A DNA stretch of 64,000 nt, taken from the IMG/VR virus record IMGVR_UViG_3300008255_000002. One strand, 5' to 3'. The notes under the pieces are model-generated. The model worked only from the letters and a program-made list of their open reading frames with translations, searched no databases and was not told the DNA's origin. Of this stretch, positions 5,603 through 40,600 are shown one piece after another. This stretch comes from a virus. Numbering within the stretch: the first letter of the stretch is position 1; each line of letters begins with the position of its first letter. Position numbers and translations under genes: made by a program.

Positions 5603-5836
5603 TCAGAACCACCTTAAAAAATCTTGCCAATCTGTAGGTTCTCTAATCTTTAATTCGTTAATTGCTTCATTGTAAAATGTTCTGGCACAATTGATAGTGT
5701 CTGCACCAATATATCCAAATTTATATTTGATATAACCCCTTAATCCAAGGTATTTCTTTTTATAAAAATTAATTTCTTTCGCAAGTTCTTTATTATTTAG
5801 TGTGCAAATATATGATTGATACATTAGTATCTCCAT
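5603..5836 (-). CDS. Hypothetical protein
   Basis: 77-aa ORF. Confidence 0.5.
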   Translation of the reverse strand: MEILMYQSYICTLNNKELAKEINFYKKKYLGLRGYIKYKFGYIGADTINCARTFYNEAINELKIREPTDWQDFLRWF

Positions 5837-6342
5837 CTGATAATGTCGCTATTTTTATCTACAATAAAGTTGTGTTGATTCAGGTGTTGTTCAATAACTC
5901 TCTTATCATACTCTTTGAGTTTATTTTTATACATAAAACCTTTAACATAATACATTTTATTATTCTCTGCATTCATTACATCATTAGATAATTTTTCAAG
6001 TAAATCTTTATGTCTTGTATATTTTATATTTTTGATATTTTTAATTGTGTTGCTATATGTATGATCGACCATAGATTCGATATATTGTTCTAGATCATTT
6101 TTAATAAAATTCTTATCGTCATAAAAAATAATATAAATTAGTTGATTAGTTCTCCTTTCTATAACTTCTCCAATATATTTCTTTTCAATATTTGGATAAA
6201 TTAGTCTATTATTAACGTGAATAGGAAAGTTTTTTGTACGAGCAGAAAAAATATTATCAGAAACGCGAAGATCAAATTTTTCATGCTTTACGATTTCTCC
6301 TGCAACACCTTTTCGACGTAAATCATTTTCCCAGGTCAACAT
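5824..6342 (-). CDS. Hypothetical protein
   Basis: 172 aa; AAGGAG SD. Confidence 0.65.
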   Translation of the reverse strand: MLTWENDLRRKGVAGEIVKHEKFDLRVSDNIFSARTKNFPIHVNNRLIYPNIEKKYIGEVIERRTNQLIYIIFYDDKNFIKNDLEQYIESMVDHTYSNTIKNIKNIKYTRHKDLLEKLSNDVMNAENNKMYYVKGFMYKNKLKEYDKRVIEQHLNQHNFIVDKNSDIIRWRY

Positions 6343-7009: not shown

Positions 7010-7279
7010 TCAAAGTCCAAAGAATTCTTCATCATTAACAACCTCATCTGAGAGAAGAAATCCTAATACCACATCGTGAAATATATTATCTAGTGTGTCA
7101 ACGACAAATAATCCTTCTTTTTCGATTCTATCGATTTGTGTAAGATCCGCCGCACTCAAATCATATACAATATTGTTTTTTACAAATAGCCATCCTTTCA
7201 GTTGTTGAAATCCTTTTTCATTAAGGGGTTGTATCGATAATGATAACTGTTGTTCGCTATAATCTTCATCGAAATTCAT
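7010..7279 (-). CDS. Hypothetical protein
   Basis: 89 aa; YDLSAADLTQIDRIE segment. Confidence 0.6.
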   Translation of the reverse strand: MNFDEDYSEQQLSLSIQPLNEKGFQQLKGWLFVKNNIVYDLSAADLTQIDRIEKEGLFVVDTLDNIFHDVVLGFLLSDEVVNDEEFFGL

Positions 7280-11780: not shown

Positions 11781-12050
11781 ATGCATGGACAATCTTTTAA
11801 AATACATGTTGAAGTTGATGAAAATGAGATTTATAGATTAATTGATGAGATGGATAACGAGTCTCGATTAAAGATTTTTGAATATATTGAGTCTAAAATT
11901 GATGGCGAAAAATTTAAAGGTATTGATAAGATTGGTAATAGGTGGCGTGCCAGAATCACACATAAAAAGAAAACATATAATTTGGGATATTTTAAAAATA
12001 AATCTGATGCTAATGAAGCATATAATAAAAAAAGAAATGAATTAGAATAA
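11781..12050 (+). CDS. AP2-domain DNA-binding protein
   Basis: FKGIDKIGNRWRARIT...YNLGYFKNKSDANEAYN. Confidence 0.75.
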   Translation: MHGQSFKIHVEVDENEIYRLIDEMDNESRLKIFEYIESKIDGEKFKGIDKIGNRWRARITHKKKTYNLGYFKNKSDANEAYNKKRNELE

Positions 12051-12251
12051 TATATATTACATTTCGATGCGAAGTGGTAGTTTATATCAACTTTCCCTTG
12101 TTATTTTTTTTTAAACGGTATCTAATAATAAATATATCATAGAATGGGGCGACATCAGTATGTAATGGTGTAATTATATGGGCACTTGCGGCGGGATAGA
12201 TTAAAATGTGATGAAATAAAAAAGCCGCCCGAAATTAATCGATAATCAATT

Positions 12252-12374
12252 CTAAATCATCATAGTACAGTTATTTCCAAATTTCACTTCATAATAAATC
12301 TCTCCCCAACTTTTGATATGTGGATTGTTCTGTCTTAGATATTTAATTACGTCTTCAAGTGAATGATTCGACAT
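12252..12374 (-). CDS. Small hypothetical protein (40 aa)
   Basis: GGGAGG SD before the ATG at 12374; the ORF-track extension to 12617 is unlikely. Confidence 0.5.
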   Translation of the reverse strand: MSNHSLEDVIKYLRQNNPHIKSWGEIYYEVKFGNNCTMMI

Positions 12375-12632
12375 TTTTAAATCCCTCCCGTTGTGGTGTT
12401 TATGGTGCCGCTTCCAAATTGTCCGAATATTTTGACTTGATATGTATAATTCTACCCTGCCACATATTGGTATAATGATAAAAAAGGAATGGCGGGATTG
12501 TTTTATTGATATATGAAAAAGGATTCTGCCGAATTGACCAACTACATGTCGATATGAGCATCGGTGCCGAGAAGGATTTAGATATGTTGAATTAAGGGGT
12601 TGTGGTGCTGGAACCAAATTGCCCTAATGTAT

Positions 12633-12708: not shown

Positions 12709-13038
12709 TTAGTGTAGTCGTCCCGAGTTTGTCCAACTGTTAATAACTTCATATTTATTCTTATTAATACGTCGCACTCCGCGCCTCACAAATCCCGCAT
12801 AAGGATTTCCACATATATTACAAGTGTGCCCGGTTGATGCCAATTTTACATTCTTAATTAAGCGTCCCTTTATACTTGCGTTTCGGCAAGCCTTGCACTT
12901 ATGATAATTTGCAAACTTCTGAACAGAATAATATTTATTTCCATTTACATCATGCTCAAAGATTACCTCCTCCCCTAAACCAATAAAAATATTTGCGTCC
13001 ATTGCGTCCATTGCTTCTCTCACGGTTCTTTTTAACAT
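12709..13038 (-). CDS. Zn-finger hypothetical protein
   Basis: CKAC...CNIC; GGAGG SD. Confidence 0.65.
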   Translation of the reverse strand: MLKRTVREAMDAMDANIFIGLGEEVIFEHDVNGNKYYSVQKFANYHKCKACRNASIKGRLIKNVKLASTGHTCNICGNPYAGFVRRGVRRINKNKYEVINSWTNSGRLH

Positions 13039-13092
13039 TAGTTCGTCCCTCCAAATGTGTCGTGGTTCCTTGTCTAAATCAGCACACTATCA

Positions 13093-13130
13093 ATCTTACC
13101 ACAAATTCCACCATAGTCAAGAAAATTTTC
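13093..13130 (-). promoter_or_regulatory. Early promoter P9
   Basis: GAAAATTTTC TTGACT, 16 bp, TGg TAAGAT. Confidence 0.8.
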
Positions 13131-13365
13131 ACTGTCACGCTCATTTTGCGATCAATACGCGGCAGCACGGATTTAAAGACGTGGCAACTTCTTCTTTAGG
13201 GAGAGCACACTACCAATAATTAAAGCTATAATAATCATAGTTGATTATCCTTACGACTAAGCATATCGTGACTTGTTTTCATCTTGTAGAAACGTCCATA
13301 CTTGAATAAAGACATGTTAATTCCTCCATTGTGGCTCTGTACTCTGAAATCTAGTCCACTATAGT

Positions 13366-13402
13366 ATTTTACCAGACTTCCAAGGATAGTCAAGAAAATT
13401 TT
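13366..13402 (-). promoter_or_regulatory. Early promoter P10, upstream of a 26-aa ORF at 13235-13315
   Basis: TTGACT, 16 bp, TGg TAAAAT; GGAGG SD. Confidence 0.8.
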
Positions 13403-13519
13403 GGTGGTTTTATCTTTTGATATTTTAAGACATCAATTCATGTGCATGTGTGGCGGGCGGCATCTACATATGTTAAAACGTGGATTCTAAATTTATCGTC
13501 TATTTTTCCAAAAAAGTAT

Positions 13520-13547
13520 TTGCCTATCGTGCATTCTATGGTATATT
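13520..13547 (+). promoter_or_regulatory. Early promoter P11, divergent from P10
   Basis: TTGCCT, 16 bp, TGg TATATT. Confidence 0.75.
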
Positions 13548-13610
13548 GTATTTGTGAGTGATGAATGTCATCGCTCGCGAGATACGGAACACAAGACTGG
13601 AGAACAAAAC

Positions 13611-13988
13611 ATGAGCAAGTTTAATTCCGACAAGGCACAGCGACTTTCCCGTACCTTGAAGCTAGTCGCCGACCCCAACCGTATGCAAGCATTGGCATAT
13701 CTTTATGTCAACGGCGACACAAGCGTCGGTGCATTGTGCTCTGCTATCGGTGTCAGTCAACCGAATTTGAGTATCAATTTGAGAAACTTGTTGATGGTTG
13801 ATATTGTTAATCAGAGGCGCGACGGTAAGAATATGTATTATAGCTTGAACAAACACAGTGAACACTATTCAAGAATAAGGGGTCTCTTGAATGATGTTCT
13901 CGATGATGAGTCTGAAGCCGCGCCCAAAAAGCCAAAGGTGAACAAGTCAAAGAATGTTGATGTTTCGACTGAACTGGTCGAAGTCTAA
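13611..13988 (+). CDS. ArsR/SmtB-family transcriptional regulator
   Basis: LKLVADPNRMQAL...SVGALCSAIGVSQPNLSINL...V.QRRDGKNMYYSL; GGAG SD before 13611. Confidence 0.9.
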   Translation: MSKFNSDKAQRLSRTLKLVADPNRMQALAYLYVNGDTSVGALCSAIGVSQPNLSINLRNLLMVDIVNQRRDGKNMYYSLNKHSEHYSRIRGLLNDVLDDESEAAPKKPKVNKSKNVDVSTELVEV

Positions 13989-14008
13989 CATATAACGACG
14001 TGCCTTAT

Positions 14009-14047
14009 GACCGGGGTGAGCATATTGCTCGTCTCGGTCCTTTTTTA
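14009..14047 (+). terminator. Intrinsic terminator
   Basis: GACCGGGGTGAGC-ATATT-GCTCGTCTCGGTC, then C and T7. Confidence 0.85.
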
Positions 14048-14149
14048 TATATCATATATCAAGATATGTTCATATGTCCATCCGTGACGCACAAGTTGAA
14101 CTGATGTAGATTTGTGTATATATGGATTTCACAGAAAATTATTTTTTTC

Positions 14150-14177
14150 TTGCCTATGCTGGAAATTATGGTATCCT
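14150..14177 (+). promoter_or_regulatory. Early promoter P12
   Basis: TTTTC TTGCCT, 16 bp, TGg TATCCT. Confidence 0.75.
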
Positions 14178-14236
14178 ATTAAGTGTAGGGTTTAACGTTG
14201 AATCCTACTAGCTGACACCATTGATGAGGATTAGAC

Positions 14237-14458
14237 ATGAATGCATTTCAGATTGGAATCGGTGACTTGTTTCCTGCATTCGGACGTGATTACAAGAACA
14301 AGAAGCAGATTCAAGAGGATTTTGATGCGAATAAGGATTTTGTCGATAGTGTGAGTGATAGATATGTAAACAAGTCTCAATTGAAGGAGTTAGGCGTTAC
14401 GCGCGTCATGGTGCGATACGCAAAGAAGACGAAACTTACAGACATCAAGGTTTCTTGA
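14237..14458 (+). CDS. Small conserved phage protein
   Basis: PAFGRDYKNKK...DFDANKDF...VRY; has its own promoter, SD and terminator. Confidence 0.75.
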   Translation: MNAFQIGIGDLFPAFGRDYKNKKQIQEDFDANKDFVDSVSDRYVNKSQLKELGVTRVMVRYAKKTKLTDIKVS

Positions 14459-14464
14459 TAGGTT

Positions 14465-14500
14465 TCCCCGGCATGCTTCGGCTTGTCGGGGATTCTTTTT
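14465..14500 (+). terminator. Intrinsic terminator
   Basis: TCCCCGGCATGC-TTCG-GCTTGTCGGGGA followed by TTCTTTTT. Confidence 0.85.
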
Positions 14501-14642
14501 GCGCATATATATAAAAATGTCTTGATACAATAATATAGCCATCAATACATATGTTTGCGCGCACATATCAAATTATCTACATAGTATTTCTCCCTAACAC
14601 AAGTATTTGGCGATCAATACATATCAACACATAAGCATAAGC

Positions 14643-14740
14643 GGCGATATACATTTACTAATGGACATATCTACATACGTGGCGATATACATTTACTAAT
14701 GGACATATCTACATACGTGGCGATATACATCTACTGATGG
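14643..14740. repeat. 38-bp tandem repeat, about 2.5 copies
   Basis: GGCGATATACATTTACTAATGGACATATCTACATACGT at 14643 and 14681; degenerate third copy from 14719. Confidence 0.9.
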
Positions 14741-14810
14741 TGATATTTAGTTATGTGCATGCGTGGCGAACAAGGTTCGCTGATGTGAACATCTCTTTAT
14801 ATGTTAGCGC

Positions 14811-14849
14811 AAAAGAAAAGATCCGCCCACCCTTTCGGATAGACGGATC
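14811..14849 (-). terminator. Intrinsic terminator ending the 16.66-14.8 kb operon
   Basis: GATCCGTCTATCC-GAAA-GGGTGGGCGGATC followed by TTTTCTTTT. Confidence 0.85.
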
Positions 14850-14855
14850 ATTATA

Positions 14856-15077
14856 TCATACCATCAATCGAATCTCTCCAGTGTCCATGATGCAAACTTC
14901 AGCATATTCTGTTATCAGTGGATCAAACGATTTTATCATTTCAAAATATGCAACCAATGTTAAATCATCCTGAATAGGATTGTTATTAATACCTAACATC
15001 ATGGTATGTTCATGATTGATGCCGGGGAATTTCTTTTCGACTAGACTAAACATCTCGATAATCTGAAGCTTGTTCAT
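14856..15077 (-). CDS. Hypothetical protein
   Basis: 73 aa; GGGAGATTGA SD region shared with neighbouring genes. Confidence 0.7.
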   Translation of the reverse strand: MNKLQIIEMFSLVEKKFPGINHEHTMMLGINNNPIQDDLTLVAYFEMIKSFDPLITEYAEVCIMDTGEIRLMV

Positions 15078-15098
15078 CTCTCAATCTCCCAACGAAAC

Positions 15099-15226
15099 GT
15101 CTCGCGCGAAATGCGCTCGACAAGTAAGTATGCCACCATATTTCAGATGGCATACCTATAAATCAATTCGAACTAGTAACGCGCTAGTTCATTGGACACG
15201 TATAAATGATTTCATCATACGTGCCC
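15099..15226 (-). repeat. Two adjacent twin-hairpin elements (E4 15099-15158, E3 15169-15226)
   Basis: Each is a long hairpin with a GAAA-containing loop followed by a second hairpin (TGAACTAG...CTAGTTCGAATT in E3; more degenerate in E4). Confidence 0.7.
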
Positions 15227-15232
15227 GTTCTC

Positions 15233-15385
15233 TCAATCGATGATCAATCGCGATAACTTATAAACATCCGGTTGCGTTCCTAGAAACCGTCTAGCGTCTC
15301 TTGCTTGACGCCATTTTTTGTACCATTCGCGACGGATCTTGTCAGTAGAATGCCGACGCTTTCGTGTTGCTTCCCCTGCGCTCAT
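15233..15385 (-). CDS. Small basic protein (50 aa, not in the ORF track)
   Basis: MSAGEATRKRRHSTDKIRREWYKKWRQARDARR...; ATGA overlap with the upstream ORF. Confidence 0.55.
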   Translation of the reverse strand: MSAGEATRKRRHSTDKIRREWYKKWRQARDARRFLGTQPDVYKLSRLIID

Positions 15386-15516
15386 TTTGATAGCTCCAAT
15401 GCAACGTCATAGAAACGTGTGAACATTTGAACCGCGTTAACAACTATGATCATGGACATCGCCACGACCGCACTGATGAACACCAGCGCATGAGTCGTTC
15501 CCTGGAATCCTCTCAT
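15382..15516 (-). CDS. Small membrane peptide (44 aa, not in the ORF track)
   Basis: MRGFQGTTHALVFISAVVAMSMIIVVNAVQMF...; AGGGG SD. Confidence 0.6.
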   Translation of the reverse strand: MRGFQGTTHALVFISAVVAMSMIIVVNAVQMFTRFYDVALELSK

Positions 15517-15547
15517 GATTCAATCCCCTAATCAAACGGTTCCAATT

Positions 15548-15604
15548 CGAGCCTAGACGCTCTAGACTCAATAAGCGCCATGCCCTTTCGAGCATGACGC
15601 CTAT
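15548..15604 (-). repeat. Twin-hairpin element E2
   Basis: ATAGGCGTCATGCTC-GAAA-GGGCATGGCGCTTAT, then TGAGTCTAGA-GCG-TCTAGGCTCG AATT. Confidence 0.8.
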
Positions 15605-15610
15605 AACATA

Positions 15611-15898
15611 TCAATGGTTGTAAAGTCTCTTGACCTCGCGCTCATTCGCTTGGTTGTCGTGATAAACATCTCTGAGTCTACCACGCAGGATTCGCGCGGT
15701 TTTCACCGAATCGCGACTCATGAAAACATGCTGAATTGCGAACGGCGTTTTGATGTGAATGATCGTCTCGTCGCCTGCGCCGCTCGCATGATATGTCCCC
15801 GGCTTGATCTCAACACGCTCAATTGTTGTGTCTTTCTTTCCCTGCACAACGATGGTTCCGATTGTCGGTTCTTGAATCGTGATTGCATATGCACGCAT
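15611..15898 (-). CDS. Hypothetical protein
   Basis: GGGAGATTGATC ATG at 15898; the ORF-track extension runs through hairpin E1. Confidence 0.65.
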   Translation of the reverse strand: MRAYAITIQEPTIGTIVVQGKKDTTIERVEIKPGTYHASGAGDETIIHIKTPFAIQHVFMSRDSVKTARILRGRLRDVYHDNQANEREVKRLYNH

Positions 15899-15933
15899 GA
15901 TCAATCTCCCATGCCTACGGCATTTTGCGGAAT

Positions 15934-15992
15934 CGAGCCTAGCCAATCTAGACTCAGATGCTACGCATCCACATTTAAGAATGCGTAGCATT
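15934..15992 (-). repeat. Twin-hairpin element E1
   Basis: ATGCTACGCATTC-TTAAATGT-GGATGCGTAGCAT, then TGAGTCTAG-ATTGG-CTAGGCTCG ATT. Confidence 0.8.
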
Positions 15993-15995
15993 CGA

Positions 15996-16349
15996 TCATT
16001 TTTCGTACCACATGCTTTTCGCATGAATTGGTGTTGATGTGTTCTGTTGAGTGTACGGTTGATTTTCCCATGTTCCTCCAATAAACTTGGCTTCATGCCA
16101 TGTCAATGAAAGCCTGTTAATCGGTTTTAACCATTTCGGATCGATCTTTTTCGGATCAACGTATAGTAATCCGAATTGATCTAGGTTTACCGTTCCCTCC
16201 GATTGATCTCGAAAGCATTGATAGTCAATCTCAATTCCAGAGGGCATGTAGATTTTTCTCCCCTTTAGGGTAGTGGCGAAAATTTGCTTACCCTTGGGAA
16301 CAACAAGTTTAAACCGTAGAATGTCCGAATTGCGATGATTGATCGCCAT
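15996..16349 (-). CDS. Hypothetical protein
   Basis: AAGGGGA SD before the ATG at 16349. Confidence 0.65.
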   Translation of the reverse strand: MAINHRNSDILRFKLVVPKGKQIFATTLKGRKIYMPSGIEIDYQCFRDQSEGTVNLDQFGLLYVDPKKIDPKWLKPINRLSLTWHEAKFIGGTWENQPYTQQNTSTPIHAKSMWYEK

Positions 16350-16405
16350 TGTTCCAAATCCCCTTGATCCCATGAAAAGCCGATTATACGTTATAATCAG
16401 CATAC

Positions 16406-16467
16406 GGAATGCACGGAATCGAACCGTGAAACATGAAAACATGCTTGCGCGCCTATCGCACCATTCC
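16406..16467 (-). ncRNA. 62-nt tRNA-like cloverleaf with no anticodon loop
   Basis: GGAATG GTGCG-ATAGG-CGCGC AAGCATG-TTTT-CATGTTT CACGG-TTCGATT-CCGTG CATTCC. Confidence 0.65.
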
Positions 16468-16496
16468 TTTAGGGGAGATTTTGCGTTTCTTAAACG

Positions 16497-16616
16497 CTTG
16501 CTTGACCTGTCATATGAACGTTCTCTTATGGTATTACGTTATGCTCTAAACATAATTCAGGATTGTTCAGATCCAGCAATAAGCATAAGATACTTGCTCG
16601 CATGCGGGTTTCAAGC
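16497..16616 (-). ncRNA. Branched structured RNA in the operon leader
   Basis: Nested stems GCTTGA/TCAAGC, TCTTATG/CATAAGA, TATTGC/GTAATA, GGAT/ATCC and TTATGT/GCATAA. Confidence 0.5.
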
Positions 16617-16621
16617 TTTCG

Positions 16622-16656
16622 AGTTTTCAAAGATCGTTTGACGGTTTCTCGCCGTC
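16622..16656 (-). promoter_or_regulatory. rRNA-leader-like boxB hairpin plus boxA antitermination signal
   Basis: GACGG-CGAGAAA-CCGTC, AAAC, then GATCTTTGAAAACT, immediately after the P13 -10 box. Confidence 0.7.
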
Positions 16657-16663
16657 TGTTCCC

Positions 16664-16700
16664 ATTATAGCATTTTTTCCAACCATTCAAGAAAAATTTC
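16664..16700 (-). promoter_or_regulatory. Early promoter P13
   Basis: TTTTTC TTGAAT, 15 bp, TGc TATAAT. Confidence 0.75.
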
Positions 16701-16973
16701 TGGAAAATTCTAAATCGTTGTGACGCAACAACTTACAACCATCCAACATTACTGATATGTAAGATCACCTACTAATAAATTCTTTACGTGAAAAGATTGC
16801 TATAGTATAACATCTACATACGTTTATATCGAGACATGTTGTATTGATTAATCTACATATGAATGAATAGGGGGGTTTTTATGATTTACATGTGCCTATG
16901 TGTTTATATGAAAATATGCAGGGGGAGTACAAACAAACCTCCCATCAAAAAAACAAAACCCATCAGTAGAACG

Positions 16974-17816
16974 CTATCGCTGTCTTTTCTTTTCTTTTTC
17001 TTTTAGCAACTTTGCTCCGCGAATCCCTTTATCATATCTATAGTGAATCGTACTTTTTGTCACCTTGCATCTTTTATCCCTCGCCCACTCTCGTAGCGAT
17101 TTCTTTTCACCGAAAATTTCGACAACTATCCCTTTAGGTCCACGACGCACGCAATCGCCCTGTTCCAACAACGCGGTTCCACGTATCCCTTTAGAATATC
17201 GTTTGCGCAACAAACTATATGGTGCTTTGCATCTTGGGTCGCGTGACCATTCATATAAAGTCTTCGTCTCTCCTAATTCATTAATACTTACGGGTTCTCC
17301 CTGATTCTTGAATTTGCGGCGCGGCGGTACATAGTTCTTATCATACCACGTATCGTTATTTAAAATTTTCCACACCGTACATTTAAATTTATTTTCCAAT
17401 TTGATATGTGACCACCCCTCTAAGTAAAACCTCCTGATTTTATTTACGATTTCCCATGTAAGTTCAGATTTTTTTGACGACATCTCAAGTTCTTTTTTAA
17501 TTGATTCGCGAAGTCGTTTTGTGGCAGTTCTGGTATTTGAGCCGCGAGCTACGAGAAAAGGTCCCCTCATCATAATGCACATAACACCTTCAGTTATATT
17601 GATCGATCCAATACGAAAAACTCTCCCATAAATCTTTATACGCGAAATTACTAAATTATTTTGGTTAGGGGAGGTTCTATATAAACCGTGTTGCATTCTC
17701 AGGGCGCCTATATTTTTAGCTGTATAACTGGTGCCGCACTTTGAGTTGATGTAGAGCACCATTTCATAATCAGTTTTTTTTGTGTAGTATTCTTTGATAT
17801 AATCAATAATATCCAT
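16974..17816 (-). CDS. DNA-binding protein with duplicated homing-endonuclease-type DNA-binding repeats
   Basis: GETKTLYEWSRDPRCK...RYSKGIRG repeated as GEKKSLREWARDKRCK...RYDKGIRG; no nuclease motif seen. Confidence 0.65.
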   Translation of the reverse strand: MDIIDYIKEYYTKKTDYEMVLYINSKCGTSYTAKNIGALRMQHGLYRTSPNQNNLVISRIKIYGRVFRIGSINITEGVMCIMMRGPFLVARGSNTRTATKRLRESIKKELEMSSKKSELTWEIVNKIRRFYLEGWSHIKLENKFKCTVWKILNNDTWYDKNYVPPRRKFKNQGEPVSINELGETKTLYEWSRDPRCKAPYSLLRKRYSKGIRGTALLEQGDCVRRGPKGIVVEIFGEKKSLREWARDKRCKVTKSTIHYRYDKGIRGAKLLKEKEKKRQR

Positions 17817-17934
17817 TGGGGGATTCCTAAAATGATATTTATTCCTGTTAAAATAAATACAATTAATATAAAGGAGCATGCAGTTGCGTGCGAATTAAAA
17901 CAAGAAGATCCATTAAACGCAGAGGAAATTATAT

Positions 17935-18423
17935 ATGAACATACAGTACAAAACAGAGATCGAACAGTTTCAGGGGGCACAATCGGAACAAAGATTAATC
18001 GAGATAATTAATTTTGTCATCGATAAACTTTATACACAGTTTGAATTTTCTTATTATACAAAAGATGATATTAGACAAGAGGCGTGGGTAATGATACTTG
18101 ATGCGTTTGCCAAGGGTTCATATGATCAAAATCGCCCAATCGAAAAATTTGCCTATAGACACATCAAAAATAGATTAATTAATCTGCGGCGCGACAAATT
18201 AAAAAATGATACCTCGCAACAATCATTAATGAATACTTCCGAAATTTTAATTGACCCGGAAGATTATTTTGTTCCCTATCATGATAACATTTCCCTAATC
18301 GAACAACGTATTCCCTGTTACCTCAGAAGTGATTTTTTGCGATTACTCGATGGGGTGCGCATCCCCGAATATAAGAAAAATAAAATTAAAAGGTATCTAT
18401 ATGAAGAAGAAATTATTAATTAA
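17935..18423 (+). CDS. Phage-encoded sigma factor (region 2 core), likely the late sigma
   Basis: YTKDDIRQEAWVMILD...YDQNRPIEKFAYRHIKNRLINLRRD; first gene of the virion module. Confidence 0.75.
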   Translation: MNIQYKTEIEQFQGAQSEQRLIEIINFVIDKLYTQFEFSYYTKDDIRQEAWVMILDAFAKGSYDQNRPIEKFAYRHIKNRLINLRRDKLKNDTSQQSLMNTSEILIDPEDYFVPYHDNISLIEQRIPCYLRSDFLRLLDGVRIPEYKKNKIKRYLYEEEIIN

Positions 18424-19279: not shown

Positions 19280-19766
19280 ATGCAAAAAGTAAAAGTTTTA
19301 GTTGATACTCGTGAACAATGTCCGTGGAAATTTACGGAAAATAGTTGGTGTTCTGGATCTGAAATTACAACACTAAAAACGGGCGATTATACTTTAGAGG
19401 GGTTTGAAGATAAATTGTGTGTAGAAAAAAAAAAGCGTAAACGAATTTTATAATAATATTGTAACTAAAGATTATATTCGTTTTACTAAAGAGTTAGAAC
19501 GTATGAAACCTTTCCCTAACAAATATATTATCTTATGTTTTAATATGAATGATATTATTAAGTTTCCCTGGTCTACAGACCTACCAATTCACGTAAAAAG
19601 AAAAATTGTCGCAAGAGGCAGTAAATCAGATTTCTTCCTAAAAAGATTTGTTGAACTTCAAATAGCCTATCCAGATATTCATTTTCTTTTATGTGGGGAT
19701 GAAGCTGAAAAGGTTGTTAGTTCTATATTTAAAAGAGTGGTAGAATATTATGCAGAAAAAAGTTAA
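19280..19766 (+). pseudogene. ERCC4-domain nuclease split by a +1 frameshift in an A10 run
   Basis: Frame 0 reads VLVDTREQCPW...LKTGDYTLEG...LCVEKK and stops at 19453. The +1 frame continues SVNEFYNNI...RFTKELERMKPFP into ORF 19503-19766. Confidence 0.8.
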
Positions 19767-22700
19767 TCTTAGAGATTTTTTCGATAAATATTATGAAGAT
19801 GGAGAGGATGAATTTTCTTATCTAGAAACAGATGGAGGTTTAGATTTAGACGATTTAGCAAAATCAGAAATAGACATATCTAACAATCCATTTTTTGATA
19901 AAAAAGAAGATGCAGTTAGGAAGTTTTGTAGGGTTATTAGAGATCCAGATTATCTACCATTTACATGTGAACATGTTTTTAATATAGAGTTACTTCCTAC
20001 ATATCACGTCACAATGAAGCATTTATATAATCATTCCTTCCCAATGCTTATTGGTAGTCGTGGATTTGGAAAAAGCTTTACATTAGCTTTATATATATTG
20101 TGGCGACTATTAATTAATCAAGGTATTAAAGTTGTTGTTGTTGGTGCGGCATTCCGCCAATCAAAACTTATATTTAATTATTGTTTATCTATTCTTGAAC
20201 GTGCGCCGGTATATCAAAGTATGTGTGGAAATGGTTCTAAGATCAAGATATTAAAAGGGAACGATAAATGCACTATTCAGGTCGGTGAAAGTTTTGCAAC
20301 GTTTTTACCATTAGGTGATGGAGAAACAATTCGTGGTGAACGTGCTAATATTATTATTGCTGATGAATTTTCCATGATACCAGTTGATGTATATGAAACT
20401 GTTGTTAAAGGGTTTACTGCTGTTTCTCAAAATCCTATTAAAAACGTTAAACAAATCGCCAAAATGATGAGAAAAAAGAAAAAAGGATTATGGTCAAAAG
20501 AACAAGAAATTCTTTTTCAAGAAATGATGAAGTCTAATCAATCAATTGTATCTGGTACTGCATATTATTCTTTTAATTCTTTTTGTGATTATTGGAAAAA
20601 ATATAAAAAAATTATACAAAATAAAAATATAAAAGAAGCTGTTAAAGAAGAGGATGCTTATGCGCATTGTAATCGTAAAGATTTTTGTGTGCTTCGTATT
20701 CCTTTTGATTTAATTCCAACAGGATTTTTGGATATGAAATCCTTAAATCAAACAAAGGAAATGATCGCGGATTCTACATTTCAAATGGAATATGGCGCAT
20801 GTTTAACTCCAGATACAGAAGTTATTACATTAGACGGGATTAAAAAAATTATTAATGTAAAGGTTGGAGATTATGTATTAACACATCTTGGAAGGTGGCG
20901 AAAAGTTATCGAAGTAATGAAGCGGAAATATTTAGGTAATATATATAAAATTAAAGCATATGGAAATAATCAAAATATAGGCGTGACCCCAAACCATCCA
21001 TTTTATATTGATGAGGATTGGGAAAATTCTGCCAATTTAAAAAATAAAAAATTAGAACTTGCAAGATTTAATCATCTTAATAATACAACATCAATTAAAA
21101 TATCTGATTATGTAGATAGTATATGTAAAACAGTAGTTAATGATGTAGAATATGTTTATCCTAAACCATCACAATTAAAATGTTTTAAAGATCATCATAT
21201 AAAATATAAATCATGCATTCCAAATGAAATTAAACTTGATTATAATTTCGGATTGATTATTGGTTATTATGCGGCGGAAGGTAGCGTTGGAGCAAATGGT
21301 AGGGCGGTTTCTTTTTCTCTTGATGGTCATGTTGATATTAGTTTATTAGAATATATAAAAGAATTGAAAGATGCCCTTTTATCAACTTTTGAAATGAATT
21401 CCGTAGAATATCCAAAAGAAGATAATGTTGTTGATGTTTGTATGAACAGTAGATTAGTATCTGATCTATTAAAAAAAATATGTCCTAGTGTATCAGATAC
21501 AAAACATGTTAATACAGATATATTATACTCAAATCCAGAATTTATGAAGGGGTTTATTACTGGTTATTGGCATGGTGCCGGATGTGTACATAAAGATAAA
21601 TCAAGAAACAGATATCGTATTGTCGCGGGATGCACAAATAAATCTCTTTTATCTCAAGTTCGATTATGTATGTCTTATTTTGGTATTAAATCATCTTTAA
21701 ATAATGGAAAAGAAAAACATAAATCTTACTTTAGAGGGAGGGTATGTAATTGTAAACCATCATATATAGTACAAATATCAGAATCGTATTTAGATGAGTT
21801 TATTAAATTTATATCCGACAAAGAATATTTCCCCCCTAACCAAAATAAAAAAACACATAAGTTTATAAAGAGAGTTTATAAAGAAGAACATTATAGTGGA
21901 TTTGTTTATAATTTAGAAGTTGAGGAAGATCATAGTTATTCATTAATTAATGCTACAGTACATAATTGTTTTCCTGAAGATTCCAATGGTTTCTTTACTA
22001 GAAAATTAATTGAATCTTGTGTTGTGAAATCAGAAAGACAAATAGGACACGAAATTATATATCCTTTTACGGCAAGTATTATTGGTATAGACCATCCATT
22101 ATTTTATGCAATGGGTGTGGACCCTGCATCAGCAGAGGATAATTTTAGTATTGTTGTTATATCTGTATACCAAACATATAGAAAAATTGTTTATTGTTGG
22201 ACTATTAGAAAATCTATTCTTGCAGAACATATTAAAGAAGGTAGGGTTGATCAACAGGATTATTATGGATATTGCGCGAAAAAAATTAGAAATGTTATGA
22301 AGTCATTTTCTCCGTGCGAAATTATTGCTTTGGATGCTCAGGGTGGTGGTGAAGCTGGCGTAGCAGAAGCATTAGCAGATAAAGATAAATATTCAGAAAA
22401 AGACCTTCCTATATTCCCCGTAACAGAAGACCATCCGTTTTGGGATGGTAAAGAACGACATACAGATAAAATGACAGGGAAACATATTATTGAATTAGTT
22501 CAATTCGCGCGTGCTGATTATATTTCAGAAGCTAATCACGGATTAAAGAAAGATATGATAGATAAGGTATTACTATTTCCTATATTTGATGCAATATCTT
22601 TATCTACCGCACAATACCACGATGACGAAGAAGGCTTAGAATATGATAATTTAGAATTATGTATGTTAGAAATAGAAGAATTAAAAGATGAATTAGCGAC

Positions 22701-23001
22701 GATTCAACATGGACAACATCCAAAAACCAATAGAGATTATTGGGATACTCCAGAAAAGAAACTTGCCGAAAACAAAAAGGGTCGGTTAAGGAAGGATAGA
22801 TATAGCGCTTTATTAATAGCAAATATGGCGGCGCGTCGCTTACAACGCATGCCAGAAATATATAACAGAATGGTTGTTGGTGGTTTTGCTCAAAAATCAT
22901 CTATTAAAAAACAAATTAATTCCGGGGATAAAAATTTGTTTGTTGGTCCGCAAAAATACGTTAAGTCATTAAATATTTGTGCTGCTGTACGTAGACAATA
23001 A
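19750..23001 (+). CDS. terL: Terminase large subunit containing an intein
   Basis: Walker A GSRGFGKS, IRGERANIIIADEF, nuclease MGVDPA and RKDRYSAL. Confidence 0.95.
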   Translation: MQKKVNLRDFFDKYYEDGEDEFSYLETDGGLDLDDLAKSEIDISNNPFFDKKEDAVRKFCRVIRDPDYLPFTCEHVFNIELLPTYHVTMKHLYNHSFPMLIGSRGFGKSFTLALYILWRLLINQGIKVVVVGAAFRQSKLIFNYCLSILERAPVYQSMCGNGSKIKILKGNDKCTIQVGESFATFLPLGDGETIRGERANIIIADEFSMIPVDVYETVVKGFTAVSQNPIKNVKQIAKMMRKKKKGLWSKEQEILFQEMMKSNQSIVSGTAYYSFNSFCDYWKKYKKIIQNKNIKEAVKEEDAYAHCNRKDFCVLRIPFDLIPTGFLDMKSLNQTKEMIADSTFQMEYGACLTPDTEVITLDGIKKIINVKVGDYVLTHLGRWRKVIEVMKRKYLGNIYKIKAYGNNQNIGVTPNHPFYIDEDWENSANLKNKKLELARFNHLNNTTSIKISDYVDSICKTVVNDVEYVYPKPSQLKCFKDHHIKYKSCIPNEIKLDYNFGLIIGYYAAEGSVGANGRAVSFSLDGHVDISLLEYIKELKDALLSTFEMNSVEYPKEDNVVDVCMNSRLVSDLLKKICPSVSDTKHVNTDILYSNPEFMKGFITGYWHGAGCVHKDKSRNRYRIVAGCTNKSLLSQVRLCMSYFGIKSSLNNGKEKHKSYFRGRVCNCKPSYIVQISESYLDEFIKFISDKEYFPPNQNKKTHKFIKRVYKEEHYSGFVYNLEVEEDHSYSLINATVHNCFPEDSNGFFTRKLIESCVVKSERQIGHEIIYPFTASIIGIDHPLFYAMGVDPASAEDNFSIVVISVYQTYRKIVYCWTIRKSILAEHIKEGRVDQQDYYGYCAKKIRNVMKSFSPCEIIALDAQGGGEAGVAEALADKDKYSEKDLPIFPVTEDHPFWDGKERHTDKMTGKHIIELVQFARADYISEANHGLKKDMIDKVLLFPIFDAISLSTAQYHDDEEGLEYDNLELCMLEIEELKDELATIQHGQHPKTNRDYWDTPEKKLAENKKGRLRKDRYSALLIANMAARRLQRMPEIYNRMVVGGFAQKSSIKKQINSGDKNLFVGPQKYVKSLNICAAVRRQ
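20800..21966 (+). mobile_element. Intein (389 aa) with LAGLIDADG homing endonuclease
   Basis: QMEYGA|CLTPDTEV, block B VTPNHPF, VYNLEVEEDHSY...VHN|CF; LAGLIDADG helices GLIIGYYAAEGS and GFITGYWHGAGC. Confidence 0.95.
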
Positions 23002-27255: not shown

Positions 27256-27276
27256 TAATATTTGGAGTTAAATATA

Positions 27277-28290
27277 ATGTCAGATAAAGAAAAAGAGTTA
27301 ATTCAACGGTTAAAAATGTTGCTTGCAAAAGCTACAGATACAGTACAGGTAGAATCTTCAAAAGCTGCACGTATGGAATTTACACAAGCATTAGAACTAC
27401 CACTACGCCAAGGTGTTATGGATGGTAATAATATTGATGGTATATTTGAACGTGCTGAACTAGATCATGGTACTGTACTAGAATATCCTCTAGATTTTGT
27501 TATGCCCGGTACTGAAAAAGATTATCGCGCTTTTACAATTCCTCTACAGGGGCATATGCCAGAACTACATGTTAATGGTGACTATGTTACTATTCCAACA
27601 TATGAAATTGGTGCTACTATTGATATGCGTATGAAATACGCTCGTGATGCTGGTTGGTTCGTTGTAAATCGCGCTCTATCTGTTCTAGAGTCAATGATGA
27701 CCAAGAAAAGAAATGATGATGGATGGCACGTTCTGTTAATCGCTGGTGCAGATCGTAACATTCTAGTTACTGATAGCGTTGCTAATACTGGTCAATTCAC
27801 AAAAAGACTTGTTTCTCTTTGTAAAACTGTTATGCGTCGTAATGGTGGTGGTAATTCTACCAGTATTATGCGTGGTCGTTTAACAGATCTTTTCCTAAGC
27901 CCTGAATTAGTTGAAGGTATGCGGGACTGGGGAATAGATCAGGTTGATGAAGTTACTCGTAGAGAAATTTATACAGCTAGCGACGATTCTGATAAATTAA
28001 ATCGTGTATTTGGTATTAATCTTCATGATATGGATGAACTAGGTGAAGATCAAGAATATCAGAATTATTTCCTTAATGAAATTGGTACATCTATTAATGC
28101 TAATGATACAGAGCTATTAGTTGGTCTTGATTTATTCAATAATGATAGCTTTATTATGCCGGTTAAGACAGATGTTAAACTTCTAGAACGCGAAGACCTT
28201 TTAGACCAAAGACGAATTGGATGGATGAGTCTAGCAGAACTAGGGTTTGCTTCTCTTGATAATCGACGTGTATTGATTGCGTCTGCATAA
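27277..28290 (+). CDS. Major capsid protein
   Basis: Size and position; GGAG SD; followed by a hairpin at 28322-28342. Confidence 0.85.
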   Translation: MSDKEKELIQRLKMLLAKATDTVQVESSKAARMEFTQALELPLRQGVMDGNNIDGIFERAELDHGTVLEYPLDFVMPGTEKDYRAFTIPLQGHMPELHVNGDYVTIPTYEIGATIDMRMKYARDAGWFVVNRALSVLESMMTKKRNDDGWHVLLIAGADRNILVTDSVANTGQFTKRLVSLCKTVMRRNGGGNSTSIMRGRLTDLFLSPELVEGMRDWGIDQVDEVTRREIYTASDDSDKLNRVFGINLHDMDELGEDQEYQNYFLNEIGTSINANDTELLVGLDLFNNDSFIMPVKTDVKLLEREDLLDQRRIGWMSLAELGFASLDNRRVLIASA

Positions 28291-37673: not shown

Positions 37674-40600
37674 ATGTCAATACCATTAAGCGCACAATTA
37701 CAGATTTCGCCACCACAAAATTTAAATCAAGTTAGACAAGCTATTCAGTCATCGTTGAATGGTGTTAGAGCGGATATTAACGTCGCTATTAAACAAGGAT
37801 CTTTAAATAATATAAGTAGTTTAAATAATAATATTAATAATCTACAATCTAATATTAATAAGATTCCATCTTCTATAAATAAAGCGAATCGTTCCTTTGT
37901 ATCGTTTTCTGATAATATAGCTGTTTCTACAAGACGTATGACAGCGTTTATTATTGGTTTAACTGCTGTATCAAAAATTGAAAGTGCATTTTTTGATGCT
38001 GCTAAATCAGCGCTTGAATTTCAACATGAATTAGTTCGTTTAGGGCAAATTGGTAATGATACACGTAATGATATTGCATCTATCTCAAATGAAGTTGGTC
38101 GTTTAAGTAAAGCATTTGGTACATTTTCTGGTGATTTATTAAAAAGCGCATCGACATTAAGACAAGCCGGTTTTAATATAAAAGAAACTGTTGGTTTTTT
38201 AGAAACTCTTGCTAAAACAACTCTTGCACCAACATTTGATAATTTAGAACAAACAACAGAAGGTGCAATTGCTATCATGAATCAATTTGGTAGTACAATT
38301 AATGATAGCTCTGGTAAAATAGCTTTTCTAGAGAAATCTTTAGGCGCAATTAATAAAGTATCTGCTAGATATGCTGTTGAGTCTAGTGATTTAATTGGTG
38401 CCGTTCAACGTACAGGTGGAGCATTTGAGGCGGCTGGTGGAAATTTAAATGAATTAATTGGTATTATGACTTCTATTCGTTCTTCTACTCGTGAATCCGC
38501 CGAAACAATTGCTACTGCATTACGTACTATTTTTGGTAGATTACAGAGAACCGATACAGTTGAAAGGTTATCACAATTAGGTGTTCAATTACGTATTACC
38601 GCACAAGAGGCGGCACGATCAGGAAAAGAAATTGGTGAATTCGTAGGTCCATATAGAGCTATTCAAGAAATTGGAAAAGCATTAGAGAATGTTCCTAGGG
38701 GAAGTGTGGTTTTCGCCCAAATAGCTGAAGAAATTGGCGGTATTCGTCAATTATCAAAAGTTATTCCCCTTCTAAAAGAATATAAACTTGCACGCGAAGC
38801 AACATTAACCGCTGAACGTGGCTCTTTTTCTTTAGATGCTGATGCGGTTCGCGCACAACAATCTTTAGCTGTTCAATTAAGCAAGACTGCCGAAAATTTC
38901 AGGGATTTATTTAGAACATTAGCCGATAACGACCCATTAAAAGAATTTATTTCAACATCTCTTAAAGCTGTAAACGCATTAATTGAAATGGGTAAGGTTC
39001 TTAAACCTCTTGTTCCTTTATTTTTAACTCTTGGTGGTTTTAAGATTGGACAACTTGGAACAGATACAGTAAGAAAATTAATTGGTGGCGCGGGCGGTAT
39101 ACCATCGGCAAGTATAACAGGTGGAAAATATGGTTATGCTTCTGGAGGAACAGTTAAACGATTTAACACTGGTGGTCCGGTTCCCGGTCATATGAATACA
39201 GATAGCATTCCTTCTCTTTTAACTCCTGGCGAATATGTATTTTCAAAAAAAGCCGCACAAAAAATTGGATATGCAAAATTAAATAAAATGAATCGTGCTG
39301 GTTATGCTAGAGGCGGAAAAGTTAAACCCAAAATGTCTGATATTATCAAACAAATGGGTGATTATGAAGATATTGCCCCTACTCTTGATTTAGACAATTA
39401 TCCAAATCCACCAGATTTAATAGATCCAAAAGCTAGAAAAAATATCGACGAAAGAATCAAGGCTCTTTTTGGACCAAAGATGACACGTAATGATCTTAGA
39501 CCGTTTGAGTTAGGGAGTGGAAAGAAATCTACAGACGAATCATCTTATAATTATTTTACTACAAGGTCTCTTAAAGAAACAAGAAAAGAAAAACGTCCAT
39601 TAAAACTACTTGGATATGAATTTAAAAAACGAAATGTTTATGGTAAAGAAATTCCTCAATTTAAAAGAGATCGTAATGATAATTTTGAAGATGGGATTAT
39701 TAATACTTTATATAGTGAATTTAAATCATATCTACCTAAAAAGTACGATACATACGACTTTGACCCACAAAATAAAATAGATCCACAACCAATAGATAAT
39801 TATATCAAATTCGATCAATCTCGCGGTGGACGCTCACAAGAAAGATATTATCAGAACCAAATCGTTAAAAAAGTTTTTGGCGAACAAAATATCAAACTAT
39901 CAGATTTGCTACCTTTTGAACGTCCAGACGTAACAACTAGCGATATTACCAAAAGAATATCAAAAGAAAAAGATATTACACTAAAAGATTTTCGATCTGT
40001 ATTCGGTAAAAAACCACAGTTAGACCAATTATCTAAAAATACATTAATTTCTGGGTTGGGGAATGGTATCACTTCTGATGATTTATATCCTTTTGAAATC
40101 CCAAATAACAAAACCCAAAAATTACCAAAAAGTATATTTGAACAACAAAGATTCTCCCTTAATACACAAAAAGAATTACGACCATTAAAATTGCTTGGAC
40201 ACGAGTTTCAGAAAAGAGATGTTTATGGCAATATAATCCCAAGATATAAAAAAGATATTATTCGTGCGGCAAAAAGATCAAATCAACCAATAGATACTTT
40301 TGAATTTGGATCAAGAGAACCCGTTGCTGAATTTGGTAATATTCTATTTGATAATTCTCCGCAAGGACAAACTCAGCGAAGAAAATATCAAAATCAAATA
40401 GTTAAAAATGTATTTGGTGAAAATTTTAAATTATCAGATTTGCGTCCTGGCGAACGTCCTGATGTTCAGAAACGCGATGTAATTAGTGGAGATAATGAAG
40501 TTTCTCTATCTCAATTTAGACAAGTTTTTGGAAGAAAACCACGTTTAGAATCTGATATGGTTGATCCTATTGATAGCACTATTGCACAAGTGTTCGGTAA

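Follow-up and report, generated by a model that had tools for sequence, protein, structure and literature searches.

Intercistronic hairpins which are cut by a nuclease and then cap the resulting messenger RNAs (mRNAs) are textbook knowledge in phage T7, and they were shown decades ago in SP82. To our knowledge, such structures have received little attention outside these phages. A different type of paired structure is found in phage HK022, whose putL and putR sites are cis-active RNAs of about 65–70 nt with two adjacent stem-loops, separated by about one unpaired base. The put sites are promoter-proximal, they are present once per operon and act on RNA polymerase. We have analyzed four twin-hairpin elements, E1 to E4, found between positions 15099 and 15992 of IMG/VR virus record IMGVR_UViG_3300008255_000002. 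This stretch of 64,000 nucleotides, which we call the window, comes from a large, uncultured tailed phage with a GC content of about 30%. A previous reading of the sequence alone, referred to below as the sequence-only reading, had described the elements and proposed that they are a repeated antitermination, processing or 5'-stabilizing RNA motif. Our analysis confirms the observation: E1–E4 are strong pairs of RNA hairpins in mRNA (minus strand) sense.

Twin hairpins in the messenger RNA

The elements belong to an operon encoded in the minus strand, with the order promoter/leader, B, E1, C, E2, D and E, E3, E4, F, terminator. They occupy its three intergenic gaps, E3 and E4 being placed in tandem in one of them. 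Individual hairpins are listed in Table 1, their coordinates agree with those of the sequence-only reading within 1–2 nt. The layout it described is also seen in all four folds: A first hairpin (H1) with a stem of 13–15 bp is followed by a second hairpin (H2), with a linker of 0–3 nt between them. All four elements are intergenic, as claimed. H1 starts 3–6 nt past a UGA stop codon, and three of the elements end 21–35 nt ahead of an ATG which carries GGG(A/G)GATTGA upstream.

The H1 hairpins have predicted energies between −17.7 and −23.6 kcal/mol, with z-scores from −5.9 to −7.8 when compared with dinucleotide shuffles. In a sliding 40-nt fold which covered the window on both strands, the four H1 hairpins rank with the strongest structures, alongside true terminators. 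The clustering of four such elements is far beyond chance. The H2 hairpins are weaker, as shown by their z-scores in Table 1. The sequence-only reading had pointed out that H2 keeps the pattern TGA(G/A)..CTAG-loop-CTAG..TCGA(A)TT in E1–E3, and this is the case: E1 and E2 share 88% identity over 24 nt. The H2 of E4 is similar to the others in shape, not in sequence.

Selection for pairing acts on the mRNA-sense strand. Helices contain G-U pairs on this strand, as the sequence-only reading had stated for the first stems; their number is 13, and no A-C is found; the two sole A-C cells in the alignment are columns of E3 which lie beyond the real helices. Folded as whole elements, the minus-strand RNAs of E1–E4 reach −32.3, −36.4, −25.3, and −30.9 kcal/mol, compared with −23.3, −18.7, −20.6, and −22.0 kcal/mol for the plus-strand RNAs. 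The advantage of the mRNA strand is 5–18 kcal/mol as RNA, and only 1–5 kcal/mol when the elements are folded as single-stranded DNA. The presence of G-U without A-C, together with this fold advantage, therefore points to selection on the transcript, unlike what is expected for a symmetric DNA palindrome.

None of the eight hairpins is followed by a proper U-tract, only a weak AAUUGAUUUA tail is found at E3 H2. By contrast, a U-tract is present in every canonical terminator of this region: 14820–14849 in the minus strand, 14009–14039 and 14476–14491 in the plus strand. In the operon, no hairpin other than the first of these has one. We have thus discarded E1–E4 as intrinsic terminators, since the combination of a GC-rich hairpin directly followed by a U-tract is not found in them. 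The strand-specific G-U pairs, the lack of U-tracts and the placement between stop codons and Shine-Dalgarno (SD) sequences fit an RNA-level element of the mRNA. This part of the sequence-only proposal is supported, while the put-like antitermination which it included is unlikely.

In order to compare the four copies, we have aligned them with MAFFT, and the register obtained fits one common structure. Pairing is found in 93% of the alignment cells, compared with 25–40% when the partners are slid, and 16 of the 22 pairs show changes on both sides which compensate each other. These compensating changes should be read with care, because hairpins with equal arms which are aligned by shape give them by construction. 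Other features speak for a real kinship of the copies. The H1 arms are 40–55% identical in most copy pairs, and E2 and E4 have a common lower stem, UAGG/CUUA, with a G-U at the same place. The apical loops of E3 and E4 are identical (UGAAAU.AU, 8/8) while their stems agree at only 3–4 of 13 positions; the loop of E1 agrees at 6/8.

We have searched for relatives of these elements in several ways. A covariance model built from E1–E4 gives 65–74 bits for its own copies and at most 14 bits for the rest of the window; in the window, the element is thus restricted to one operon. No Rfam match is found in 15099–15992 with E-values up to 10, and a blastn search of 14000–17000 against 50,697 phage records gives no matches. 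The exact H2 pattern is absent from the viral contigs and from all 185,579 genomes scanned. Its single metagenome match is due to chance: It lies within a coding region and has no hairpin beside it. Among 5.8 billion proteins, no homologues of genes B, C, and F are found apart from the genes themselves, and a search of viral contigs for related loci by genes B and C was empty. Five further contigs contain gene C, they are 100% identical across the elements. Relatives of the portal gene are just about 40% identical and are found on short contigs without the operon. The refuting condition set by the sequence-only reading thus has a mixed outcome: The covariance model does not find homologues beyond the four copies, in the window or in SPO1, while the stems do differ by compensating changes, in paralogues aligned by shape.

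Comparison with phage processing sites and proposed role

The closest known case is found in the host-takeover module of Bacillus phage SPO1 (FJ230960). We have folded its intergenic gaps, and six of them contain a conserved element. In the RNAalifold consensus of the six copies, a variable 10-bp hairpin is separated by 2 nt from a conserved one of 7 bp (UGGAGCC...GGCUaCUA). The variable hairpin is 92% paired and has six pairs with double changes. These elements are found 10–50 nt ahead of strong SD sequences, and several copies then carry a third small hairpin which adjoins the SD sequence. Single-sequence folds suggest an alternative, in which the 5' flank GGUUGCUAG and GGAGCC form one long hairpin with an internal loop, this structure being merely 67% paired across the copies. 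Cleavage sites of Bs-RNase III have been reported both for the early mRNA of SP82 and for this SPO1 module (PMC3896407, citing Stewart 1998; PMC4838370, references 19 and 20; PMC1935012). We infer that the conserved SPO1 element coincides with these sites.

The similarities with E1–E4 are of several kinds. In both cases the sites are located in gaps between small early genes and precede a strong SD sequence, and in both cases a variable first hairpin which is kept by compensating changes has a second hairpin of conserved sequence close behind. The analogy with SPO1 RNase III sites, already proposed in the sequence-only reading, gains support from this common organization. The base of the second hairpin also looks alike in SPO1 and E1/E2: UG(G)AG(C/U)C...GGCU(A)C(U/G)A. 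With a spacer of 4–16 nt, this descriptor matches three of the SPO1 copies and, in the window, nothing besides E1 and E2, while 0.025 matches are expected; it was defined post hoc and is only a lead.

On the other hand, no kinship is detected with covariance models. The E1–E4 model gives at best 10.1 bits on SPO1 and the SPO1 model gives at best 11.7 bits on the window, at a position away from E1–E4, while true copies score 54–81 bits with these two models. The conserved 5' flank of SPO1 is absent from E1–E4, and H1 has 13–15 bp instead of 10 bp. In addition, sites of the SP82/SPO1 type are cut once, on the downstream side of an internal loop in the target stem (PMC1935012), whereas H1 is uninterrupted in E1–E4, save for one bulge in E3. 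Because the reciprocal covariance models do not reveal any kinship, we would say that E1–E4 work like the SPO1 element, not that they are members of the same family.

The RNase III signals of T7 early mRNA (R0.3, R0.5, R1, R1.1, and R1.3) are also intercistronic, they act as sense-strand RNA and divide one long transcript. After the cut, a protective hairpin remains on the upstream product (PMC1935012). Each T7 site is one irregular hairpin with about 20 bp or more, around two helical turns, and the cut lies in its asymmetric internal loop. E1–E4 differ from them in having two separate, nearly perfect hairpins of 13–15 and 7–11 bp, which reach 20–26 bp only when stacked. With 5' stem-loop stabilizers and 3' hairpin or REP barriers they share the placement, H1 past the stop codon and H2 ahead of the ribosome-binding site; the difference is that both functions would be combined in one repeated module. 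The two adjacent stem-loops and the short linker also recall the put sites of HK022, but E1–E4 are four intercistronic copies behind a leader of the boxA type, and no sequence similarity is detectable. Integron attC sites, each of which is one long imperfect hairpin and which have an IntI integrase nearby, were considered as well and discarded: The twin hairpins lack the RYYYAAC/GTTRRRY cores, and no integrase is found among the neighbouring open reading frames (ORFs) scanned.

We favour the possibility that E1–E4 are cis-acting structures for processing and exonuclease blocking in a polycistronic mRNA. Judging from their sequence and from the analogies described above, we give this explanation about an even chance. 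According to it, the elements would divide the operon mRNA into units. The message would be cut at the elements or next to them, either by a host RNase III acting on a stacked H1 + H2 of about 20–26 bp or by another endonuclease. After the cut, H1 would be a 3' barrier against 3'-to-5' exonucleases which guards the upstream gene, and H2 would be a 5'-terminal cap against 5'-to-3' decay which guards the downstream gene. Each small gene would thus gain its own stability and output, a task which falls to RNase III sites among the early genes of T7 and of SP82/SPO1. The placement is consistent with these roles: H1 lies just past the stop codon, where a 3' exonuclease barrier would be expected, and H2 lies 21–35 nt ahead of the next start, where a 5' cap would be expected after processing. 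The stacked hairpins also have the size of an RNase III substrate.

Several points weigh against this proposal. Single hairpins are shorter than the classical RNase III substrate and do not have an internal loop of the T7/SP82 type (PMC1935012). A linker of 0–3 nt offers little single strand for cuts of the RNase Y or RNase E type between H1 and H2. The SPO1 element corresponds to a mapped cleavage site of the SP82 type only by inference. The tandem arrangement of E3 and E4 is not explained by a simple model with one barrier per gene. Finally, covariation is seen solely between four paralogous copies aligned by shape, and diverged relatives were not found in any collection searched.

The operon and its surroundings

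The features of the locus are summarized in Table 1. No Pfam matches are found for genes B–F with E-values up to 5, and the neighbours of gene C in a protein atlas are not informative. Gene B has an uncertain start, which could be the ATG at 16442, 16373, 16340, or 16247. Gene callers chose 16373 and 16247, the best SD sequence stands before 16340. ARAGORN does not find any tRNA genes in the window, including 16406–16467.

Table 1. Hairpins, genes and other features of the locus, with the SPO1 elements used for comparison. H1 and H2 are the first and second hairpin of each element; z, z-score against dinucleotide shuffles; SD, Shine-Dalgarno sequence.
Feature	Position	Strand	Description
E1 H1	15958–15991	minus	13-bp stem, loop UUAAAUGU; starts 4 nt past gene B UGA; −20.4 kcal/mol, z −7.8
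E1 H2	15934–15956	minus	UGAGUCUAG-AUUGG-CUAGGCUCG; 8–9 bp including two U-G; 1 nt past H1, ends about 35 nt ahead of ATG 15898; z −3.0
E2 H1	15572–15604	minus	14–15 bp, GAAA tetraloop, three G-U; starts 6 nt past gene C stop; −23.6 kcal/mol, z −7.8
E2 H2	15547–15571	minus	11 bp, loop GCG, same stem sequence as E1 H2; adjoins H1 without linker, ends about 30 nt ahead of ATG 15516; z −4.5
E3 H1	15194–15226	minus	12+2 bp, one bulge; apical UGAAAUCAU, as in E4 loop; starts 6 nt past gene E stop; z −6.0
E3 H2	15170–15190	minus	GAACUAG-CGCGUUA-CUAGUUC, 7–8 bp, followed by GAAUU; shorter form of E1/E2 H2 with pairing kept; z −2.6
E4 H1	15125–15158	minus	13 bp, loop UGAAAUAU; lower stem UAGG/CUUA in common with E2; z −5.9
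E4 H2	15099–15121	minus	Interrupted 3+4 bp hairpin, outside the CUAG sequence family; ends 21 nt ahead of ATG 15077; z −2.1
Candidate promoter and leader	16625–16690	minus	Extended −10
Gene B	15996–16442	minus	UGA stop at 15996–15998; no known family or homologue
Gene C	15611–15898	minus	Orphan, 95 aa; SD GGGAGAUUGAUC
Gene D	15382–15516	minus	44 aa, hydrophobic; stop overlaps start of gene E (ATGA)
Gene E	15233–15385	minus	50-aa peptide rich in arginine and lysine
Gene F	14856–15077	minus	Orphan, 73 aa; SD GGGAGAUUGAGAG
Intrinsic terminator of the operon	14820–14849	minus	13-bp stem followed by UUUUCUUUU
Possible H2 relative	13554–13579	plus	11-bp hairpin with 3-nt loop, UGAGUGAUGA-AUG-UCAUCGCUCG; z −5.5
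Terminase large subunit gene	19750–23001		Contains an intein with a LAGLIDADG homing endonuclease
Tape-measure protein gene	37674–46730		3018 aa
SPO1 element copies (FJ230960)	5794–5870, 7103–7179, 11787–11863, 12209–12284, 12413–12491, 12710–12785		Six copies in intergenic gaps of the host-takeover module

The candidate promoter (16664–16690) has TTGAAT, a 15-nt spacer and TGcTATAAT. It is followed by a 5' hairpin, GACGG/CCGUC, at 16640–16656 and by ACGAUCUUUGAAA at 16625–16637, in a structured leader which precedes gene B. This sequence agrees at 12 of 13 positions with the boxA consensus of the rRNA (rrn) operons of Bacillus subtilis, AUGAUCUUUGAAA. In B. subtilis, this consensus is likewise preceded by a small hairpin at the 5' end (PMC13753749). 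As such an AT-rich window has three matches with at most one mismatch compared with 0.47 expected, the motif by itself is not unique; it is its position which makes the match persuasive. The sequence of this leader suggests an rrn-type, Nus factor-dependent antitermination of a phage mRNA operon, and also a host belonging to Bacillota.

The region at about 12–18 kb, which holds E1–E4, has a GC content raised to 37–42%. The GC content at third codon positions (GC3) is 0.39–0.56 in genes C, D, E, F, and a nearby ArsR-like gene, compared with 0.15–0.20 in the terminase, portal, and tape-measure genes. In view of this contrast between the small genes and the core phage genes, the block at 13000–18000 is a compositionally foreign island, imported from a GC-richer source. 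An HNH endonuclease gene (16974–17879) is located at its upstream edge. Just downstream of the operon terminator there is a 38-bp tandem repeat (14636–14740) with 2.8 copies and 94% matches. It is one unit shorter in a contig from another sample, so the number of copies differs between samples. This array could correspond to iterons or to a protein-binding array.

We have also found sites similar to H2 outside the elements. The plus-strand hairpin at 13554–13579 shares with H2 of E1 and E2 the frame TGAGT-N13-GCTCG and the position of a U-G, and its geometry, 11 bp with a 3-nt loop, is also the same. It is found in sense orientation at the predicted 5' end of the mRNA of the ArsR-like gene, whose predicted promoter is at 13520–13547. 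This location fits a 5'-stabilizer role for hairpins of the H2 type, although it could equally be an operator of the ArsR-like regulator. Another site, TGAGTCTAG-CAGAA-CTAGGGTT, is found in the plus strand at 28226–28247, within the 3' end of the ORF 27262–28290. It agrees with H2 of E1/E2 at 15 of 17 specified positions, with about 0.04 such sites expected by chance in the window, and it folds poorly (z −0.3). It may be due to chance or be a DNA-level site. Inside gene E, a fourth unit with CTAG-spacer-CTAG, CUAGA-CGGUU-UCUAGG, is present at 15280–15294 in the minus strand. Its core is the same as in E2 H2, and it is coding sequence without pairing flanks.

Other explanations and significance

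Some explanations accept an RNA-level element and give it a different function. E1–E4 might be binding sites for a protein, either the arginine-rich peptide coded by gene E or a host protein, which would read the H1 loop (U-G/U-AAAU), the H2 stem or both, and would control translation, decay or elongation. The loops of E3 and E4 are conserved (8/8) while their stems vary (3–4/13), the H2 stem is conserved in sequence while its loops differ, and the gene E peptide is basic and rich in arginine. Even so, we consider this unlikely: A/U-rich loops are expected at 30% GC, gene E does not match any family, even at an E-value of 5, and there is no single motif in all four copies, as E2 has a plain GAAA tetraloop and E4 H2 has another sequence. 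In an extended version of this idea, which is in our opinion a long shot, the twin hairpin would act as a dedicated signal for a ribonucleoprotein and travel with the operon. The peptide of gene E, or some other factor of the phage, would bind the conserved H1 loop or the H2 stem and set the processing, translation or elongation of each small gene. If it were true, the operon with its rrn-type boxA leader would be a self-contained expression cassette, similar to an rRNA operon and mobile between phages. The elements might also be antitermination RNAs similar to put or nut, or else leaky factor-dependent terminators or attenuators. The put analogy, which the sequence-only reading had drawn, is limited to the shape of two adjacent stem-loops in a total of about 60 nt, and turns out to be weak. 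A put-like role is very improbable, because four copies located 0.7–1.55 kb past the promoter would be redundant for a processive modifier, and because the leader already has a 5' hairpin and a boxA-like signal. The absence of U-tracts and of matches in Rfam also stands against this group of explanations.

Other explanations place the function, if any, in the DNA. E1–E4 could be palindromes: operators where the neighbouring ArsR-like or helix-turn-helix regulator acts as a roadblock, or joints for the gain and loss of gene cassettes, as in T4-type phages with their PeSL cassettes. H2 is near-palindromic, the hairpin with the TGAGT-N13-GCTCG frame covers the predicted transcript start of the ArsR-like gene, a typical position for an auto-operator, the island has a foreign base composition, and the tandem E3/E4 resembles a joint left after the loss of a cassette. 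Nevertheless, all wobbles are G-U on the sense strand, while the other strand would have A-C mismatches. In addition, the spacing between CTAG half-sites changes from 9 to 11, the sites are within the transcribed operon and none is found at its promoter, and no recombinase is found among the neighbouring ORFs scanned. We therefore regard a DNA-level function as quite unlikely. We are just as doubtful about palindromic repeats of the REP, BOX, or MITE type, imported with the island and with no dedicated function, or only an incidental stabilizing one. E1–E4 are in fact repeated, palindromic, intergenic, and confined to the foreign island, but there are just four copies in one operon, all with the same orientation and the same register relative to stop and start codons. 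None is found elsewhere in the 64 kb, and the scans of sequence collections with the H2 pattern gave a single chance match, in a coding region.

Three further candidates were discarded. Hairpin promoters for a virion RNA polymerase, as in N4, do not apply here, since the 3018-aa protein is the tape-measure protein. A promoter for the phage sigma-like protein (17935–18423) does not agree with the data either: All conserved H2 positions are in the stem, there is no −10 sequence, and there are no copies before other genes. Finally, a mimic of CRISPR repeats is not supported, as the loops are not the same from copy to copy and none of the genomes searched contains the pattern.

In summary, E1–E4 are most likely a new and clear case of a signal type which is already known, they do not imply a new principle. 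Their interest lies in their arrangement: Four elements are found within 0.9 kb, which makes the operon a compact test bed. Since H1 and H2 are physically separate, the suspected roles of 3' barrier and 5' cap may be mutated separately, and SPO1, whose host is tractable, provides a parallel case with its own element. Elements of this type may be useful for the annotation of phage early operons, and also for the design of stable multi-gene constructs in Bacillota.

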